13,094 nucleotides of DNA from a virus (lineage: Duplodnaviria > Heunggongvirae > Uroviricota > Caudoviricetes). Each line of letters starts with the position of its first letter. Within the stretch, counting starts at the first letter, position 1. This document shows positions 1 through 12,200 of this stretch, in pieces. Both the position numbers and the translations under genes were made by a program. The notes below the pieces were generated by a model. It was not told the origin of the DNA. It did not search any database and worked only from the letters and a program-made list of their open reading frames with translations. The stretch lies in the IMG/VR virus record IMGVR_UViG_2602041549_000009. One strand, written 5' to 3'.

Positions 1-239
1 CCATCATACACTAAATCAGTAAGTTGGCAGCATCACCAGTACGAGCATACGAAATGCTCCCACAGAAGTTCCGGTAACAAATCTGGACGCCCCCAGCGTG
101 GTAGCAACCACACTCATTCAAACCCTTGACTGGCGTCAGCGGAAAGCGCGCTTAATCACAGAGGCAGAAGATGGGATATTTAATGATGTGCTTGAAAGAG
201 TCATTACCCTGATTGGTGGAGAGCATCTGCTTAAGTAAA

Positions 240-2263: not shown

Positions 2264-2269
2264 TATTTG

Positions 2270-2380
2270 CTCCTGTAATACATTTTTTTACTTACGCCGA
2301 TTTTTTCCATATTGCGTAATACATTCCAGCCGATATTGTTCTCGTAATACGCTCACAATACTGTTGTATTACGCTTTCTT
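2270..2380. promoter_or_regulatory. Divergent promoter/operator region with repeated CGTAATAC (GTANTAC) sites
   Basis: Intergenic between the Psu-like gene (minus) and the plus-strand RHH-like gene. Copies at 2276-2282, 2316-2322, 2344-2350 and, inverted, 2366-2372; the last two form a perfect inverted repeat CGTAATAC-N15-GTATTACG (2343-2373). Confidence 0.5.
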
Positions 2381-2428
2381 ATATCGCGGGTGTTAAATCC
2401 CGGCATAAACAATCAGGGAGGCAACACG

Positions 2429-2662
2429 ATGAAAAAACAAAAGAAAATGCGATGCGTATTACGCTGTATTCGTATCCCGCACGAAATCGACCATAAAATA
2501 AATCAGATATGTCAGGACAGAGAGATGAACTACTCCCAGTGCGTCAGAATGTTTATCAGTCAGGGAATTAAGGCCGGGGAAACGCAGGAAGAAGACTGCA
2601 ACGGGCGCAATGTAGCGGGGGATGTGTGGGCCTGGGCAAATGACCAGAACCACACGACGTAA
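2429..2662 (+). CDS. Small ribbon-helix-helix-like DNA-binding protein (putative regulator or antitoxin-like), 77 aa
   Basis: Plus-strand ORF with strong SD GGGAGG 7 nt before the ATG at 2429 (MKKQKKMRCVLRCIRIPHEIDHKINQI...). The basic N-terminus followed by an RIPxEIDxKIN segment is RHH/CopG-like by eye. Convergent with the Ogr-like gene. Confidence 0.5.
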   Translation: MKKQKKMRCVLRCIRIPHEIDHKINQICQDREMNYSQCVRMFISQGIKAGETQEEDCNGRNVAGDVWAWANDQNHTT

Positions 2663-2712
2663 TACAGAAATAACGCAGCCGGTCACACTCGCTGGCTGTG
2701 TTATACAAATCA

Positions 2713-2895
2713 CTATGAAGTTTTCGACTTCCTGCGCTTAGTAATGCGCACAAACGACTCAAGCGTACAAAAACAGGCCCCACACTCAATATTATTGCAC
2801 TGGTAATACGTTCTGTAGATGTTTTGTTCGTGTTCTTCCAACGAACGACCACGGGTGCGGGCTGAAGCGCCACAGGCCGGGCAAGGGAAAGACAT
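2713..2895 (-). CDS. Ogr/Delta-family zinc-finger late-gene transcriptional activator, 60 aa
   Basis: Protein MSFPCPACGASARTRGRS...YYQCNNIECGACFCTLESF matches the Ogr/Delta pattern CPxC...YxQCxNxxCxxxFxTxES of P2 Ogr / P4 Delta. SD AGAGGAG 6 nt before the ATG. Confidence 0.85.
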   Translation of the reverse strand: MSFPCPACGASARTRGRSLEEHEQNIYRTYYQCNNIECGACFCTLESFVRITKRRKSKTS

Positions 2896-3160
2896 ATCAC
2901 GCTCCTCTTACTGGTGTGAAATTTAACCTATTATATCTTCTGTCGCCCCCTCTGGCTGTATCAAATAAACCCGCAGCAGTCGCCGCGTATTACGCACGGG
3001 CGCGCCGTTCCCATGCTCACTCGTCACATTCCCCGTATCAGTTCTCTCTTGCCGTAAGAACGGCTCTGGCTGGCGATAAAACTAACCCGGTCGGGGCATT
3101 CCCGTAGCCTTTAGCGTAAATGTAATTTACCCCCTGAAACGCGTGCTGTTCCCCCGTCAC

Positions 3161-3196
3161 CTGCGCACAAAAAACTCACCGTTTTTTGTGCACGCA
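3161..3196. promoter_or_regulatory. Near-perfect ~33-bp palindrome (operator-like)
   Basis: TGCGCACAAAAAAC-tcacc-GTTTTTTGTGCACGCA; the core arms CACAAAAAAC / GTTTTTTGTG are perfectly complementary. The AT-rich stem argues for a protein-binding dyad rather than a terminator. Confidence 0.4.
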
Positions 3197-3257
3197 CGAA
3201 ATCGCCCTCCGGGCGCGCCAGTACTGGGCCGGATGGGCAAAAAGTTACTCTAAAAAA

Positions 3258-3284
3258 TTGTGCAAATTTGTGCACTTTTGTGCA
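3258..3284. repeat. Three direct repeats of TTGTGCA spaced at 10 bp
   Basis: TTGTGCA at 3258-3264, 3268-3274 and 3278-3284, one helical turn apart, consistent with cooperative binding on one DNA face. Confidence 0.45.
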
Positions 3285-3508
3285 GATGAACAATAGCGTC
3301 AAAAAGAGTGCTTTTGAGAGATTTTTTATGGCAACTGCGCCGCGTGTATTACGTTTTTTACCATCCCCGCCGCGCATGTACATACTTCATTTTTCTGCCA
3401 AACAACAGGGCAACTCCCCGTGACTGACAGCCCCAAAAAATCAATGATTGATGTTGCATTTTTGTTAGAGGTCAGGCCAGTTGTTTTGGGGCTCTGCCTC
3501 ATAATCCG

Positions 3509-3827
3509 GTGGGGGGTGCGCAAAGCGGTTACAACGGTTACAACAGTCAAAAATACCACTTAACAACATGATTTTAATGGATATTGTTTGTAACCGCTTT
3601 GCGGTTACACTGCGGTTACAACGGTTACAGGTTTCAAAAAGCACTTTATTATCAATCAATTAAAAACTTAACCTGTAACCGCCTGTAACCTAACAAAACG
3701 GTTACATGTAACCGCGTTGTAACCGCTTTTGTAACTCATCCGACCAGTTATAATATATTGATATATAATACAAAAATAAGTAATTCTAAATTTGTAACCG
3801 TTGTAACCGCTTTGCGCATCCCCCCCC
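3509..3827. repeat. Palindromically organised iteron field: at least 13 copies of GGTTACA / TGTAACC flanked by a ~32-bp inverted repeat with an AT-rich centre; candidate replication origin (ori/crr-like) or recombinase arm-site cluster
   Basis: Forward GGTTACA at 3527, 3536, 3603, 3614, 3623, 3700; reverse TGTAACC at 3589, 3674, 3684, 3708, 3718, 3793, 3802. Outer inverted repeat 3511-3543 versus 3793-3827 (26 bp identical). Inner perfect 12-bp inverted repeat CGGTTACAGGTT (3622-3633) / AACCTGTAACCG (3670-3681) across an AT-rich spacer. Confidence 0.7.
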
Positions 3828-4020
3828 AAACTTTAGCGCGACCCTTTAAAATGTTAATTAAACTCACTTGCTCTGTCTCATTCTCATTAACTCTCTGTTA
3901 TTAAAATGTATCTCGTCATTATTTGACTCTTTCTGGTAATCAGGGGGGGCAAAAAATTGATGGCGGCACCACTGCAATATGGCCACCATTGCATTGCCGT
4001 TACCGTTGGTTCTGGCCAAC

Positions 4021-4075: not shown

Positions 4076-5086
4076 TTACTCTGCTGGCTCTTTTTCTTCG
4101 GTGATCACTATGTTGGCTACCGGGTTAAATCTCATGGCATCTGCCAGGTAATCCGGTGCAAAATGCGCGTAAGTCATCGTCTGCTGAATAGTGCTGTGTC
4201 CTAGTATTTTCTGCAATGTGATGATGTTTCCACCATTAATCATAAAGTGAGTGGCAAAGGTATGCCGTAAAACATGCACAGACTGACCGACGGGTAAATC
4301 AGGCCGCACAGTCCTTATTGCACTTCTGACAGTTGCATAATTAGGTTTCATTAATCTTCCGGTCGCCTTTACTTTGACCAGTGATTCAAGATCTTTAGCG
4401 ATTGGAACGACCCGCCTTGAGCCGTTCTTTGTCTTCATAAAAATAACCTTTCCGCCAATTATGTGCTCACCTTTAATATTGGCAATCTCACCCCAGCGCC
4501 CACCTGTAGCCAGACACAACAATACAGCCTTAAGATTATCGCCAGATAAAAGCGCGGTTAGCCTGGAAATATCATCATGTGCAAGATAAGCCATTTCTGG
4601 CTGATTAATGTTTAACTTACGTATCTCGCGAAACGGGTTATTACCCGCAAACTCTTCAGCATCAATCAGCTTTTCAAAGAAACCGCTCATCATGGCACAA
4701 TAGCGATTTACTGTTGACTGTTTAATTCCACGATTCATTAATTTAAGTCGATATCTGATAATATTTTTCCGGGTTAAATGATCGCTTCTGTTTATCCCAA
4801 GTTCGCGCATATCACAAAGAACAGCTTCAATTCTTACCCGCGTCATCGCTCCATAACGATGATTCTTGCCATGATACGCCCACCATAATTCCAGAAGATC
4901 GCTTAACGCTTTACGTTCAATGGGCTTTTCGACCCACTCTTTGTTGTGGTAGTGCATCAGAACATGGCGTTCATACGCCACTGCTTCACCACGAGTATCA
5001 AATCGCCGCCTGAATCTTTTTCCTTCTGCTCCTGCAGGCCGCACGTCCACAGCAAACTTACCGTTAACCAACTTCTTTATCGTCAT
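4076..5086 (-). CDS. Tyrosine-type site-specific recombinase / integrase, about 336 aa
   Basis: C-terminal catalytic region HVLRHTFATH ... LGHSTIQQTMTYAHF (HxxR and catalytic Tyr) is typical of the phage-integrase family. The start at 5086 (MTIKKLVNGKF...) overlaps the primase stop as ATGA. Confidence 0.85.
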   Translation of the reverse strand: MTIKKLVNGKFAVDVRPAGAEGKRFRRRFDTRGEAVAYERHVLMHYHNKEWVEKPIERKALSDLLELWWAYHGKNHRYGAMTRVRIEAVLCDMRELGINRSDHLTRKNIIRYRLKLMNRGIKQSTVNRYCAMMSGFFEKLIDAEEFAGNNPFREIRKLNINQPEMAYLAHDDISRLTALLSGDNLKAVLLCLATGGRWGEIANIKGEHIIGGKVIFMKTKNGSRRVVPIAKDLESLVKVKATGRLMKPNYATVRSAIRTVRPDLPVGQSVHVLRHTFATHFMINGGNIITLQKILGHSTIQQTMTYAHFAPDYLADAMRFNPVANIVITEEKEPAE

Positions 5087-7758
5087 TTTTCGGTGACCTC
5101 CTTGTAACTGAATATCCGGCATTTCAGCACTTCCGGCTCTCTGGCTTCGGCTACTCCTTTTCCGGCGTTTGCCTGTCTGGACACCTCACTACGAATGGTT
5201 TTACGGCCTGTCAACGGTCGGGAACGCCCAGCTCCGAGCAACTCAATCATTTCGCGATCGGTTCGGATCTCCACGCGGTGAATGGCGGCAGCCTGTGCCA
5301 GTTGCGGAATACTGATAGCAATCCCTTCGCGGCATCCCTTGCCGTAATGGTTTACACCGTATTTTGTTATGCCGTCCAGGAAGTCGAACGCCTCCCAGAA
5401 CTCCATCACTTCTGGCAAGTCAGCCGCCGCCGCTTTAACCTGCGCCGTTGCCATTTGTTCCAGTTCCAGACATGTGGCATCAAGCCATTCATCCGGGATA
5501 TCGATAACGCATTTCAGCGCCCTGACCAGCGCGATAAGTTGCGCGTGATTTTTGGCAATACGGGGATGGCGAATATTTTCGCATCCGCAAAGGCGTTCCG
5601 TTTCAGCGGGCGATACCTCCAGGAACGTTTGCATAATCGCCCGTTCCTGACTTACCGCCCGGTGAATAAACCCCGATACCTTCTCGACGGGGTAGAGTTC
5701 CAGCCGTCTCGCCGCCAGTCGGGTATCAGGTGAATGGCGTTTTTTATCGGTGTATATGCGTATCAGGCGCTCAATAATTGCCGGCGAGGCATTTACCCGC
5801 GCATTCTGCGCAATCACGATAGCGCCCTTAAAATCCGGGTCATAGGTGTTGTTATTGTTGGCCTTAACCCCACGAACACCGATACCGCCACCGTTATAGA
5901 GGCTTTTCAGGTTATCGAAGTCAAACGCACCTCTTTTTTGCGCATTGTCTCCCCGGTCTGCTTCAATCAGAACAACAGGCAATCCGGCGACCTGTCCAAA
6001 GGTGCGCTTCCAGCCCGCCTCTGATCCTTTGGTTGGATCAACTCCTTCGTAGTTGTCACGACCGCACAGCCGCCAGCAAAAATCAATCAATGTTGATTTG
6101 CCCGTTCCGGGCTCTCCGGTGACTTCAAGGAAAGGGAAGGATTCTTCTTTATCCCGGATTTGTTCGCTGAACAGGGAGCCCAACCAGAAAGCCAGGGTAA
6201 TAATTCCCTTTTCACCAAAAGCCAGCCAGAGATCTTCCACCCAGGACGCTGTAAATTCATCCGGTTTTTTGTAGTTAATCTGTAATGTGGGGTTTTCGCT
6301 TAATGGTTTTGCGTTTATGCCATCAATTTCAAAATAATCCTCGTCATTGATTTCATAAGTTTTTCCCTTGTAAACAGCAATATCATTAAACAGCCATGCC
6401 CCAATCGCCTTGTTGTATCCGATAAAATCCTGACCAATAACCTCTTTTATTGCGGGAAGGTCATTTTTTATTAATGCGTCAAGCTGCGTAGTCGTTCCGG
6501 TATAAATACCGCCTTTTGCCACGTGTAACAGGCGTTTTTTAAATTCAGATGAGGATGTTAATTGTCCTGATGTAAAGGTGTTTTTCACCGTAGCACCATC
6601 CGGGAACGTAACACGGAAGTAATACCATGCTTCATCCGTGTCATTATTTCGAATGTAATAAAGCGGCGCTGGGTTACAGTTTGCGATTTCTTTTACTGCA
6701 CCAGATTCCTTAAGTGCAATTTTGCGCGCTTCATCCTCATCAACATTTCGCTCATTAATGACACGCTCAACAGCCTTCATATGGCGCTCAATGTCCAGCT
6801 TGAACCAGAAAACACGGTTATCAAAAGTAAAATGAAATTCCTTCCGCTCACGAAAGGAAAACATTATTAGTGCCTTATCTCTTGGAGATTTCGCCAGCAA
6901 TAAATCACCGTAATAACGGTATCTTTTCACATCATGGCCACGCAGCTTTCCGGCGATGTGTAAATCATTCCAGTCGCGTTTATTGTTGTTTTTACCTGGC
7001 AACGCCGCTGCCGTTCTCCAGCCGTCTTCGGCGCTGCGTTCTGCATGTTTTTTCGCGTAACGCTCACCTGCACGCCCGTTATCCAGCGCCCACACGATAA
7101 CCGGACGGGGATTATCCCCGCACAGCTTCGCCAGCTCTTCCAGTGCCTTATCAGGGTAGTTCACGGCAGACATGACAGAAACGGCCGCAATGCCATTCTG
7201 GTTAAGGCTGATGGCATCAAAGATACCCTCACAAATCCAGATTTCTTTGGCCTTGCTTAAATCTGCTCCCGGATAAGCCCACCACAACCCCTTGTAGCTG
7301 CCGGAAAAATTCGCCTTCCGTTCGAAGCGTTCCGGTCGGTCTATGATGCGCTCCCACCACACGTCGTCAGCCAGCGTAAAACGCACAGTAGCGGCCTGTT
7401 CGCCGCTTTCCTTGTCTTTGTATCGCTCCTGGGTAAATACCCCCTTCAGTGGCTCTGTAGCAATATTGCGTGCCTCCAGGAGATAAGCTGCCGCCGCTGC
7501 GTATGGTTCATCTTTCGTACTGATATAGCGATCTGACCATGATGAAAACACATCCGGGTAAAGTTCTTTAGTCAGCAGGTCTGTACCGCATTTATTTTCA
7601 CGCCCGCAGTGTACGATGTACGGCCTTTCAAGGCTGGTAAACAACTCTTTCTTTCCACATTGCGGACAAACACCATACCGGAGGTAGTTATTTTCTTCTT
7701 TGAAGTTGTAATCACGGATAAGACGGTTAATAATCTCTTTTCTGATGTCAGATTTCAT
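5083..7758 (-). CDS. P4 alpha-like primase-helicase (zinc-binding N-terminus, TOPRIM-like motif, C-terminal P-loop NTPase), about 891 aa
   Basis: N-terminal CPQCGKK...HCGRENKCG zinc-ribbon-like motif; WICEGIFDAISL (EGxxD TOPRIM signature); Walker A GEPGTGKST and Walker-B-like VVLIEADRGD. Start placed at 7758 (MKSDIRK...) because SD GGAG sits 8 nt upstream; the ORF track's 7782 start lies inside the upstream hairpin. Confidence 0.85.
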   Translation of the reverse strand: MKSDIRKEIINRLIRDYNFKEENNYLRYGVCPQCGKKELFTSLERPYIVHCGRENKCGTDLLTKELYPDVFSSWSDRYISTKDEPYAAAAAYLLEARNIATEPLKGVFTQERYKDKESGEQAATVRFTLADDVWWERIIDRPERFERKANFSGSYKGLWWAYPGADLSKAKEIWICEGIFDAISLNQNGIAAVSVMSAVNYPDKALEELAKLCGDNPRPVIVWALDNGRAGERYAKKHAERSAEDGWRTAAALPGKNNNKRDWNDLHIAGKLRGHDVKRYRYYGDLLLAKSPRDKALIMFSFRERKEFHFTFDNRVFWFKLDIERHMKAVERVINERNVDEDEARKIALKESGAVKEIANCNPAPLYYIRNNDTDEAWYYFRVTFPDGATVKNTFTSGQLTSSSEFKKRLLHVAKGGIYTGTTTQLDALIKNDLPAIKEVIGQDFIGYNKAIGAWLFNDIAVYKGKTYEINDEDYFEIDGINAKPLSENPTLQINYKKPDEFTASWVEDLWLAFGEKGIITLAFWLGSLFSEQIRDKEESFPFLEVTGEPGTGKSTLIDFCWRLCGRDNYEGVDPTKGSEAGWKRTFGQVAGLPVVLIEADRGDNAQKRGAFDFDNLKSLYNGGGIGVRGVKANNNNTYDPDFKGAIVIAQNARVNASPAIIERLIRIYTDKKRHSPDTRLAARRLELYPVEKVSGFIHRAVSQERAIMQTFLEVSPAETERLCGCENIRHPRIAKNHAQLIALVRALKCVIDIPDEWLDATCLELEQMATAQVKAAAADLPEVMEFWEAFDFLDGITKYGVNHYGKGCREGIAISIPQLAQAAAIHRVEIRTDREMIELLGAGRSRPLTGRKTIRSEVSRQANAGKGVAEAREPEVLKCRIFSYKEVTEK

Positions 7759-7771
7759 ATATAAAACTCCA

Positions 7772-7800
7772 CCCCACTGCACCTTTTGCAGTGGGGTTTT
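7772..7800. other. GC-rich hairpin between the 101-aa gene and the primase start (bidirectional terminator or attenuator candidate)
   Basis: CCCCACTGCA (7772-7781) pairs with TGCAGTGGGG (7787-7796) around a 5-nt loop. On the plus strand it is followed by TTTT (7797-7800); on the minus strand it is followed by GGAG-TTTT and then the primase ATG. Confidence 0.45.
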
Positions 7801-8175: not shown

Positions 8176-8394
8176 TCAGGCGGAAAGCTGCGTCACCTTC
8201 AACGCTCTGAAATGTGTCATTCCCAGCTCTTCCAGCCCTTCGGCTGCGCGGCGTATGGCTTCGCCCGGTCCCGTTCCGTATACCGTTGCATGTGCATGTT
8301 TGGTTAACCCGCGCTTATTAACGGCATAACCCAACACAAAGAAACGTTTTTCACCACTGCCATTATTTTTACGGGATGCTGAACGGGTTTTCAT
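8176..8394 (-). CDS. Hypothetical small protein, 72 aa (early-region small protein)
   Basis: Its ATG overlaps the upstream stop as ATGA at 8391-8394. Glycine-rich basic protein MKTRSASRKNNGSGEKRFFVLGYAVNKRG...; may belong to the small Icd-like/Ash-like families seen in P4-like prophages, but I cannot confirm. Confidence 0.55.
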   Translation of the reverse strand: MKTRSASRKNNGSGEKRFFVLGYAVNKRGLTKHAHATVYGTGPGEAIRRAAEGLEELGMTHFRALKVTQLSA

Positions 8395-8579
8395 TTCTTC
8401 ACCTTTACCACTGATGCTGTGAGCTCTTCTTCTGGCAATTGATATTTCGGCGCAATTTCTTCCGTATACCTGATAGCGTCCCTTGCCGCTTTTCCTTTTG
8501 ATTTATATTTACGTATCGTGTGGAAGTTTTCTTCCTCTCCTGTTACCACATTACGCAATTTAATATGAATCTCGTACAT
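8391..8579 (-). CDS. Hypothetical small protein, 62 aa
   Basis: Strong SD GGAGG 7 nt before the internal ATG at 8579 (MYEIHIKLRN...). The ORF track's 8609 start lacks an RBS and overlaps the upstream gene. Confidence 0.55.
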   Translation of the reverse strand: MYEIHIKLRNVVTGEEENFHTIRKYKSKGKAARDAIRYTEEIAPKYQLPEEELTASVVKVKK

Positions 8580-8980: not shown

Positions 8981-9252
8981 ACGTGGTGGCGAGACGTAAC
9001 AGGGTTGACAGACTGGCAAATTGGGAAACCAGCGAGCATAAAGCTCCCCCATTACGCCCCGCCATAATACGGGAAAGGGTGGTATTACGGGCACAAAAAA
9101 ACCGCATTACGGAATACAAGCGGCTACCCGCCAATTTATTCAGGCTGTCAAACCCGGCACCTGTTTTATGAGGTGCGGGCAAACGATACGCCATGACAAA
9201 AAAGCGAGTCAAGCAATATTGCAAATTATTTTGGCGCGATTGCGCTGAGTGA

Positions 9253-10671: not shown

Positions 10672-11934
10672 TCAGTCTGTTTCGTTAGCCCATTTAAAAT
10701 CATAGGGGGCAATATATGCCGTCTTGCAGGTGTCGAGATAATCAGCCCACCATTGCAACATTCGGCGGCGTTCCTGCATATGTTCAGCTCTGTGAATGTA
10801 TGCAGCCCGGACACTGCCTCTTTCCCTGTGACTCATCTGAAGCTCAACGGCTTCTCTTGTCCACCTGCCTGACTCTGTCAGCGCCGAACAGGCCATAGCT
10901 CTGAATCCGTGGCCACAAATATCTTTTTTTGTGTCGTATCCCATGTGGCGTAATGCCTTGTTAATGGTGTTTTCGCTCATTGGTTTTATCTGGTAATGGT
11001 CGCCGGGGAAAATAAACAATTCATCACCGGATATATTTCTTATATCGTCAAGAAGCTGCATGGCCTGAGTGGGCAAAGGGATGGCGTGAGGGGTTCCCAT
11101 TTTCGTTCCACGATATGAATATTTTACGCCTTCTATTTTTTCGCGTTCTGCTGGTATTACCCACATTGATTTATCAAAGTCAATTTCATTCCAACGAGCA
11201 AAACGCAATTCACTTGAGCGAATAAAAATTAATAAATTTAATTTTAGTGCAAATTGCGTTAATAACCGTCCATTCATCTTGTGGTGGTAATCATTTATTT
11301 TGCCAAGTAATTCAGGTAATCGCTCAAGGGGAAGAGCGGGGCGATGTTTGGTTTTATTAGTTTCGATTGCACCGTTCAGTTCCTGCGCTGGATTGTATTT
11401 AATCATTCCATTCTGTACAGCGTAGCGCATAATGGCGTTCATTCGCTGCTTGTTACGTGATGCTGTCTCAAGCACTCCTTTATCTTCCATTTTGCGTAAA
11501 GGAATCAGTAGATCCATGGTTGTGATCTCGTTAATTGGCCTTTTACCAAGAATGGGGAAGATGTGGTTTTCCAGGTCTTTTAAGACTTTTTGCGCGTGTA
11601 ATTCGCTCCAGCCCTTTTTCCGGCTGTGCCATTCTCTGGCAACGTCTTCAAAAAGCACTATTTGAGGTTTTGGTGTGTGCAGTGGGTCAATGCCTTTAGC
11701 CAGGCTCGCCAGATATTCATCACGAGCGTTCCTTGCCTGTGCAAGTGTTACGGCAGGATAAATGCCTAAAGCTCGGGTCGTTTCTTTACCGTTGATAACC
11801 TTGCGAAAGCGCCAGTATTTTGAGCCGTTGGGGTGAACATAGAGATACAGGCCTTTCCCGTCACGAAGTTTTTTAATTTTGTTGTTGTCCTTATCTGGTT
11901 TGGCGTTACGTACAGCTACATCAGTCAGTTTCAT
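10672..11934 (-). CDS. int: P4-type tyrosine integrase (DUF4102-like N-terminal arm-binding domain plus catalytic domain), about 421 aa
   Basis: N-terminus MKLTDVAVRNAKP...GKGLYLYVHPNGSKYWRFR and C-terminus HGFRAMA...RAAYIHRAEHMQERRRMLQWWADYLD are characteristic of P4/CP4-57-type integrases. SD GGAGG 9 nt before the ATG at 11934; the track's 11976 start has no RBS. Confidence 0.85.
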   Translation of the reverse strand: MKLTDVAVRNAKPDKDNNKIKKLRDGKGLYLYVHPNGSKYWRFRKVINGKETTRALGIYPAVTLAQARNARDEYLASLAKGIDPLHTPKPQIVLFEDVAREWHSRKKGWSELHAQKVLKDLENHIFPILGKRPINEITTMDLLIPLRKMEDKGVLETASRNKQRMNAIMRYAVQNGMIKYNPAQELNGAIETNKTKHRPALPLERLPELLGKINDYHHKMNGRLLTQFALKLNLLIFIRSSELRFARWNEIDFDKSMWVIPAEREKIEGVKYSYRGTKMGTPHAIPLPTQAMQLLDDIRNISGDELFIFPGDHYQIKPMSENTINKALRHMGYDTKKDICGHGFRAMACSALTESGRWTREAVELQMSHRERGSVRAAYIHRAEHMQERRRMLQWWADYLDTCKTAYIAPYDFKWANETD

Positions 11935-12200
11935 TATGTTGATCCTCCAGACGGGTACAAATAAAAATCGAACCAAGCGTACCCGTTTTTATACCCATTT
12001 TAATATGGGCTTCAGGCAAATTTAACGAGAGATAACGAGACAATGGAAGAGATTTAACTCATTGAAAAACAATGGGTAATGGTTTTTTCTGAGAGATTGC
12101 GAGAAGTTGCGATGGTGTCCCCTGCAGACATCTACTTGAGGCAGCAGGGGATTGATTGGAATGGTATTTTTTAGATGTGAGAAATATTTTACCCGCTATT

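Follow-up and report, generated by a model that had tools for sequence, protein, structure and literature searches.

Ribbon-helix-helix (RHH) repressors with short palindromic operators and Ogr-dependent late promoters are each already well known. Arc and Mnt are RHH repressors of phage P22, in which Arc silences two divergent promoters, Pant and Pmnt. RHH regulators of the Omega, CopG and MetJ type recognise arrays of 7-9-bp repeats in several promoter regions. The late genes of P2 and P4 are, to our knowledge, controlled by activation only, through Ogr or Delta acting on TGT-N12-ACA. In P2 the Ogr boxes (TGT-N12-ACA) are centred near -55 (PMC3931495), and for Smp131 the authors assigned a single dyad to both divergent late promoters (PMC3931495). 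We analysed a 13,094-nt stretch of DNA (the window; IMG/VR virus record IMGVR_UViG_2602041549_000009, Caudoviricetes) which, as judged by its genes, is an integrated P4-like phage satellite of E. coli, and in which copies of the motif GTAWTAC are clustered. Our data demonstrate that the 9-bp palindrome YGTAWTACR is a conserved, lineage-specific repeat around the late promoters and on both sides of cos. With moderate confidence we propose that these palindromes are operators of the satellite's own RHH-like protein of 77 amino acids (aa), which would gate two divergent Ogr-dependent late promoters.

In gene content the element resembles P4 and the P4-like satellites (PMC8628076): it carries an integrase, an alpha-type primase, AlpA (Pfam match), a delta/Ogr gene, a cos site related to that of a P2-like helper, and C4/isrK-type immunity. 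Unlike in P4, Sid and Psu are not recognisable among the window proteins, the sole trace being a PHROG Psu-like match of a 236-aa protein (E = 0.013). This protein and a P2-family capsid protein stand in their place, and the RHH gene with its putative operator set is an addition. The sequence-only reading had spoken of a Psu-like operon; the operon begins with the 236-aa protein, whose family is unassigned, and continues with the capsid gene. As at the late promoters of P2, 186 and P4, an Ogr/Delta gene is present, and the divergent late genes are separated by a region with a TGT...ACA dyad whose distance to the start codons is as expected. Unlike there, the box of the window is N15-spaced, as in helpers of the P88 group (Xuanwuvirus), while sister lineages of the satellite keep N12. 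We know of no counterpart of a GTAWTAC-type extra layer in P2 or P4. In a literature search, neither this satellite type nor an RHH regulator in P4-like elements was found described, nor the combination of RHH operators and Ogr-dependent promoters in a capsid-carrying P4-like satellite, nor an operator placed inside an Ogr box.

GTAWTAC has 13 exact matches in the window, where 1.18 are expected (standard deviation 1.04; maximum of 6 in 200 dinucleotide shuffles). They start at 712, 2275, 2316, 2344, 2366, 2456, 2659, 2803, 2987, 3346, 6619, 9082 and 11154. The clustered enrichment noticed in the sequence-only reading is thereby borne out, as none of the shuffles reached 13. That reading had placed 2316, 2344, 2366, 2456, 2659 and 2987 correctly, was slightly off at three copies (2276 for 2275, 3347 for 3346 and 9092 for 9082), and omitted 2803 and the isolated copies at 712, 6619 and 11154; the seven copies that it counted within 1.1 kb are in fact nine, lying inside 1078 bp (2275-3352). 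Eight of these nine match YGTAWTACR, which with one mismatch allowed has 25 matches against 8.9 expected. The outlying copies at 712, 6619, 9082 and 11154 are without palindromic flanks and their number is near chance level; the one at 9082 sits between the C4 and isrK RNA genes and is probably unrelated to the cluster. An inverted repeat pointed out earlier, CGTAATAC (2343-2350)-N15-GTATTACG (2366-2373), is exact, and is better described as two separate 9-bp palindromes with centres 22 bp apart. The individual sites are listed in Table 1.

Conservation was assessed in an alignment of 15 E. coli copies (95.5-99% identity), from which L004, a noisy long-read assembly, was left out. Among the 63 positions of the site cores a single one is variable, whereas elsewhere in 2264-3400 the share is 10.9%. 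Site 2987 shows no change at all, although 11 of its 20 flanking positions vary. Six copies of the cluster are intergenic, and three (2456, 2659 and 2803) touch coding sequence.

The Ogr box between the divergent genes is the only exact match of its pattern in the window. P88, Chuche and Shae_phiSM have the element YGTTCT-N12-ACAA (= TGT-N15-ACA) in common, in both the P-O and the sheath-D late intergenic region; in the sheath-D region of the P88-group phages the spacer of the box is variable and the arms are constant. The chance expectation of about 0.05 per window, from our own arithmetic, is somewhat optimistic because the box pattern was trimmed after the satellite had been viewed. TGT-N12-ACA, the P2/P4 late-promoter dyad, has no match across the whole window, so the earlier remark that the sites are not this canonical element was correct; the zinc-finger activator expected of an Ogr-dependent promoter is encoded (PF04606). 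The P88-group late regions likewise carry the N15 box and not the P2 consensus: in P88 (L003) the boxes lie at 14213-14233 and 33252-33272, they are also present in L025 and L026, and the two TGT-N12-ACA matches of P88 are both outside the P-O and sheath-D late intergenic regions. Homology of the divergent region with the P88 P-O intergenic region was considered and rejected, local alignment being no better than with shuffled sequence, and only the Ogr box is common to both. By the -55 rule, transcription would start near 2402 (rightward) and near 2292 (leftward). Since one dyad was assigned to two promoters in Smp131, a shared Ogr box is plausible here as well.

An exhaustive HMMER search with the 77-aa protein gave four distant homologues (33-38% identity), in the sister lineages L027, L028, L034 and L037; word-indexed searches with the RHH, 236-aa and Ogr proteins returned near-identical E. 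coli sequences only. All four homologues are found in the same gene order, with a capsid protein (341-451 aa) and a protein of about 240 aa on the left, the small protein on the right, and then an Ogr-like gene or open reading frame (scored only where the contig reaches that far), cos and primase. The most repeated 9-mers of each sister region are TGT-N3-ACA palindromes, and they differ in kind. In L034 TGTAWTACA has 6 copies (0.07 expected), and L028 has the same motif; TGTATAACA has 3 copies in L027 (0.07 expected), and TGTCWGACA 3 copies in L037 (0.06 expected). A tandem duplication of about 126 bp accounts for two of the L037 copies, both of them TGTCAGACA. The satellites of L034, L037 and L027 were not found in E. 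coli complete genomes, and a search for more lineages in IMG/VR and metagenomes, by protein and by a 20-base architecture pattern, gave close relatives or chance matches only.

The positions of the motifs relative to the promoter are kept across these lineages. L027, L028 and L034 have a canonical TGT-N12-ACA box in the intergenic region, and in four lineages the RHH ATG stands 81.5-82.5 bp away from the Ogr-box centre (83 bp for the O gene in P88). Relative to this centre, a site is found at -28/-28.5 in the window (site A), L034 and L028, and at +21.5/+22 in the window (site B), L034, L028 and L027. A third position, -67.5 to -72.5 and beside the leftward ribosome-binding site, is occupied in the window (site R), L034 (TGTAAGACA) and L027 (TGTATAACA). 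A site at the exact box centre (site O) occurs in the window lineage only.

Comparison with other genomes makes the three copies that touch coding sequence doubtful as operators. The Ogr gene of P88 has GTATTAC at the codons equivalent to 2803 (T-Y-Y), and this copy is probably a coincidence of the coding sequence. The RHH V-L-R codons at 2456 read GTATTACG also in L027, whose own motif differs, and GTA TTA CGN codons are kept at the equivalent place in L034 and L027; this copy may be a real operator, a coding by-product, or both. Site 2659 is mutated to CATAATACA in 5 of the 15 E. coli copies and appears dispensable. The RHH and Ogr genes converge, and in the gap between them a GC-rich hairpin (2678-2698) is immediately followed by TGTTATACA at 2699-2707, the L027-type motif reversed, which may belong to a bidirectional terminator or be the relic of a site.

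Of the predicted small DNA-binding proteins, none but the 77-aa protein is both intact and next to the sites in all lineages. Its reading frame and strand are intact in all 14 scorable E. coli copies. An AlphaFold2 model built from six sequences has residues 1-17 extended, followed by helices at 18-31 and 35-53, with a predicted local distance difference test score (pLDDT) of 76-86 at residues 11-40; the single-sequence model was poor (pLDDT 59). The site motif changes together with the predicted RHH beta-strand. RCVLRCIRIP accompanies YGTAWTACR, R/KSVLRTI/MRIP accompanies TGTAWTACA, KSVLRAMRVP is found with TGTATAACA, and KSIRRTIRIP with TGTCWGACA. L034 keeps six perfect sites though its Ogr-like gene has an in-frame stop in three assemblies. 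The second tyrosine recombinase was ruled out, as it is absent from L027 and L028 and cannot be the common binder. The sequence-only reading had suggested operators of a dimeric regulator, either the RHH-like protein or Ogr/Delta. Considering the 9-bp palindromes, their conservation, and the lineage swaps that go with the RHH strand, operators of a dimeric regulator are the best reading of the sites; of the two candidates the RHH-like protein is favoured, and Ogr/Delta is less supported.

In the following scheme the binder, the transcription starts, the direction of regulation and a function at cos are all inferred. A single Ogr box would drive the RHH gene rightward and the operon of the 236-aa and capsid genes leftward, and the activator could be the Ogr-like protein of the helper, that of the satellite (which shares 51% identity with its counterpart in P88-group phages), or both. 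Each site would probably bind one RHH dimer. Site B would cover about -33 of the rightward RHH promoter and site A about -27 of the leftward capsid-operon promoter, site R would lie in the leftward leader adjoining the ribosome-binding site, and site O, in the window lineage, would occupy the middle of the Ogr box. RHH protein on these operators would exclude RNA polymerase and, in the window lineage, the activator too. On our reading, RHH would in this way regulate itself negatively and, in addition, repress or time the capsid operon. The operators bracketing cos, at -168 and +190, might form a loop of about 360 bp or a boundary at the packaging site, or might act by long-range cooperativity with the promoter cluster.

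This arrangement would be like that of Arc and Mnt in that a small RHH protein is encoded beside its own operators, that short palindromic subsites overlap divergent core promoters, and that the RHH protein is made from a promoter that it shuts off itself. It differs in that the promoters apparently depend on an Ogr activator, with one operator inside the activator box in the window lineage, and in that the six to nine sites are distributed along 1.1 kb and include a pair around cos. No significant sequence similarity of the 77-aa protein to Arc or Mnt was found. The proposed system would resemble the Omega, CopG and MetJ regulators in that each dimer occupies a single short site, that there are several such sites, in both orientations, and that a single small protein serves several target regions; unlike in those systems the spacing is wide and irregular (22-359 bp) and not tightly tandem, and the targets include a packaging site.

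Several results speak against assigning the sites to the RHH-like protein and against the promoter scheme. The matches of the 77-aa protein to RHH families are below threshold, both in Pfam (CopG_antitoxin, E = 0.04, 15.1 bits with the cut-off at 28; RHH_9, E = 0.16) and among PHROGs (CopG-like, E = 0.01; Arc-like, E = 0.061), so that it has no significant match to a curated RHH family, and comparison with the PDB by sequence and by profile found nothing. The top Foldseek matches of its model in the PDB are mostly RHH proteins (NikA, Arc, CopG, AmrZ, MatP, RHH antitoxins), all with E >= 0.2. Within E. coli there is no clear sign of purifying selection on the RHH domain, as 7 codons have amino-acid changes and 3 have synonymous changes only. 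The covariation of motif and strand comes from five lineages with four motif types, and the sister motifs were chosen post hoc as the most repeated 9-mers. Furthermore, the Ogr-like proteins also differ between the lineages (34-53% identity), and covariation therefore does not single out the RHH protein. The right-of-cos site of L037 does not match the promoter motif of that lineage. As to the promoters, no sigma-70-like promoter in the intergenic region scored above the scan threshold, and the positions of the transcription starts derive solely from the -55 rule for Ogr boxes.

At cos the sites cannot be explained by promoter control. The cos-right site lies at +176 to +190 bp in all five lineages and, apart from the mosaic L037, shows the motif proper to each lineage, and the cos-left site lies at -168 to -190 bp in four of the five (window, L034, L028 and L037). 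Sequence around these sites is otherwise unrelated between lineages, and the homology to the helper cos stops before either of them. Such a conserved distance to cos suggests that they function in packaging or cooperate over a long range, and our literature search gave no description of operators bracketing cos at a conserved distance. In L037 the left cos site is of its own type, and the right cos site with the adjacent DNA is of the window type. L037 is nearly identical to the window lineage from cos rightwards (this stretch and the tandem duplication were noted at L037 3860-4110 and 4190-4420), so that satellite lineages have recombined at or near cos. Between cos core and cos-right site are four TTGTGC copies, which are probably terminase-binding repeats; three of them are 10 bp apart, and the spacing +100/+110/+120 is the same in four sister lineages (TTGTTC in L028). 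One may go further and suppose that a single RHH protein with a lineage-specific code both gates the Ogr-dependent divergent promoters and brackets cos at about +/-180 bp, for example by looping or insulating, a tentative extension to which we give a low probability.

It is also unlikely, though worth weighing, that the sites serve mainly in packaging, the copies around cos being accessory sites by which the helper terminase or the capsid of the satellite itself would recognise the satellite cos, with a secondary part for those at the promoters. The conserved cos distances amid unrelated flanks would fit this, as would the invariance of site 2987 within a highly variable stretch. Against it, most copies and the tightest geometry are found at the divergent promoters, and the helper terminase is unlikely to read the motif because the helper cos homology ends before the sites and the helper is without the motif. 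A packaging function would moreover be compatible with binding by the RHH-like protein, which could have two roles.

The satellite's own Ogr/Delta-like zinc-finger protein could bind the sites instead, with TGT-N3-ACA as compact half-sites that serve as extra activator sites. The outer triplets are the same as those of the Ogr box (TGT-N12/15-ACA), and the cluster contains the Ogr-like gene, which varies in sequence from lineage to lineage. We consider this option a doubtful one, as every lineage has a separate, ordinary Ogr box between A and B, the late promoters of the P88 group have the box and no GTAWTAC, and L034 has six perfect sites despite the stop codon in its Ogr gene. In addition, specificity in the central triplet of a contiguous 9-bp site would suit a beta-ribbon better than zinc fingers 15-18 bp apart. 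The in-frame TAA is located inside the first Cys pair (CP*CG) and is present in L034, L035 (~8284-8460) and L036 (~3220-3396). Two Ogr-like frames in tandem were seen in L029 (3948-4360) and in the near-identical L028, which recalls the duplicated zinc finger of P4 Delta.

GntR-family operators have the form TGT-N3-ACA. A host or helper factor encoded elsewhere, such as a GntR/FadR-type host regulator, could thus be thought of on the basis of this resemblance, and a difference in host could underlie the different motifs, as a search of complete E. coli genomes did not recover the sister lineages. We regard this as very unlikely: the motif is not enriched in helper genomes, it follows the satellite lineage and the adjacent RHH strand, the mosaic L037 holds two motif types in one element, and the positions are tied to landmarks of the satellite (Ogr box, RHH ATG, cos). 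Borrowing of the motif from a helper was likewise ruled out, as P88, Chuche and Shae_phiSM have 2-5 scattered copies, none of them at late promoters. That the cluster reflects chance, base composition or coding is next to inconceivable and is refuted for the intergenic sites: although three of nine copies are coding, two of them at the conserved amino-acid motifs V-L-R (RHH) and T-Y-Y (Ogr), no shuffle attained 13 copies, the six intergenic copies are invariant, and positions are kept across lineages, each with its own motif.

Table 1. Predicted sites, cos elements and genes of the satellite in the window.
Feature	Position	Strand	Remarks
Site R	2274-2282		TGTAATACA; abuts Shine-Dalgarno sequence of 236-aa gene, start 11 bp upstream of ATG; invariant (n = 15)
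Site A	2315-2323		CGTAATACA; centre 28 bp left of Ogr-box centre
Helper-type Ogr box	2337-2357	plus	TGTTCT-N12-ACAA (= TGT-N15-ACA), centre 2347; encloses the 2344 site
Site O	2343-2351		CGTAATACG; centre = Ogr-box centre (nested dyad); invariant (n = 15)
Site B	2365-2373		TGTATTACG; centre 22 bp right of Ogr-box centre; invariant (n = 15)
RHH-gene site	2455-2463		CGTATTACG; within RHH codons C-V-L-R
RHH-stop site	2658-2666		CGTAATACA; overlaps RHH stop codon
Ogr-gene site	2802-2810		GGTAATACG; imperfect flank, Ogr codons T-Y-Y
cos-left site	2986-2994		CGTATTACG; 168 bp left of cos core
cos-right site	3345-3353		TGTATTACG; 190 bp right of cos core; invariant (n = 15)
cos region	3119-3285		~81% identical to cos-proximal DNA beside portal gene of P88-group (Xuanwuvirus) phages
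cos core	3152-3164		CCCCGTCACCTGC; cross-lineage core CCCCG..C.CCTGC
TTGTGC repeats	3186-3191 and 3258-3283		Starts 28, 100, 110 and 120 bp right of cos-core centre
Leftward late operon (236-aa + capsid)	282-2263	minus	Pfam and RefSeq annotation of 99%-identical copy
P2-family major capsid gene	282-1553	minus	PF05125, E = 1.8e-72; 423 aa
236-aa gene, family unassigned	1553-2263	minus	PHROG Psu-like only, E = 0.013
77-aa RHH-like gene	2429-2662	plus	Proposed site binder
60-aa Ogr/Delta-like zinc-finger activator gene	2713-2895	minus	PF04606, 43.4 bits (cut-off 26.3)
Second tyrosine recombinase gene	4076-5080	minus	Int_N and Phage_integrase domains
Toprim primase gene (alpha-type)	5083-7782		Pfam match
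Terminal integrase gene	10672-11976		Pfam match

The element is present in about 55 of 5426 complete E. coli genomes (identity 95.7-99.3%); the 99%-identical copy in E. coli STEC384, for which a RefSeq annotation exists, is inserted between hpt and gcd. Its 236-aa protein is coiled-coil-like and is encoded upstream of the capsid gene, at the place where P4 would have Sid and Psu. The N-terminus of the satellite capsid protein is about 95 residues longer than the Pfam model. A scan of genome contigs for the capsid protein gave one close Escherichia locus, the rest being phage-type capsids of about 37% identity. A satellite with a capsid protein of its own brings to mind SaPIbov5 and its capsid homologue Ccm (PMC8569155).

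To the right of cos, an array of 13 copies of (C)GGTTAC(A) extends from 3527 to 3808 in both orientations around an AT-rich stretch (18 copies of GGTTAC in the whole window against 4.3 expected), and this array is probably the replication origin recognised by the primase. A role of the GTAWTAC sites as origin iterons was ruled out, as these are widely spread, at promoters and around cos, and the separate GGTTAC array fits that role. L027 has a comparable array with another repeat (ATTACA/TGTAAT) at ~3630-3890. The second tyrosine recombinase gene is located directly downstream of the primase gene and is also present in L034. On the minus strand at 8982-9189 a C4 antisense RNA (70.5 bits), isrK (52.3 bits) and a sub-threshold match to the c4-a1b1 target were found, in a region that overlaps a reading frame annotated as 'Icd-like' and represents RNA immunity of the P1/P4 type. 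This region includes the direct repeats of ATTACG at 9049-9118, and a degenerate cluster of motif-like sequences at 9063-9118, considered as further sites, is explained by the C4 and isrK RNA genes. At the left end of the island, a PemK/MazF toxin gene is accompanied by a small upstream gene (window 1-238; L001 9547-10139), and the same island end carries HicAB, ParE/RelB or MazEF modules in the sister lineages.

If a satellite repressor indeed acts on the Ogr box and on both core promoters, this would be a new regulatory layer in the conflict between helper and satellite, and it would reveal the timing of capsid expression in a satellite with a capsid protein of its own. Among the lineages, operator and beta-strand have switched specificity in a few natural pairs that are directly accessible to mutagenesis: an L-to-R change accompanies AWT to CWG, a T-to-A change accompanies AWT to ATA, and S/T to C goes along with a change of the outer T to C. 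The sites bracketing cos point to a possible link between regulation and packaging. A dual role of the RHH protein, if true, would couple late transcription to DNA packaging in a way that is private to each satellite lineage.

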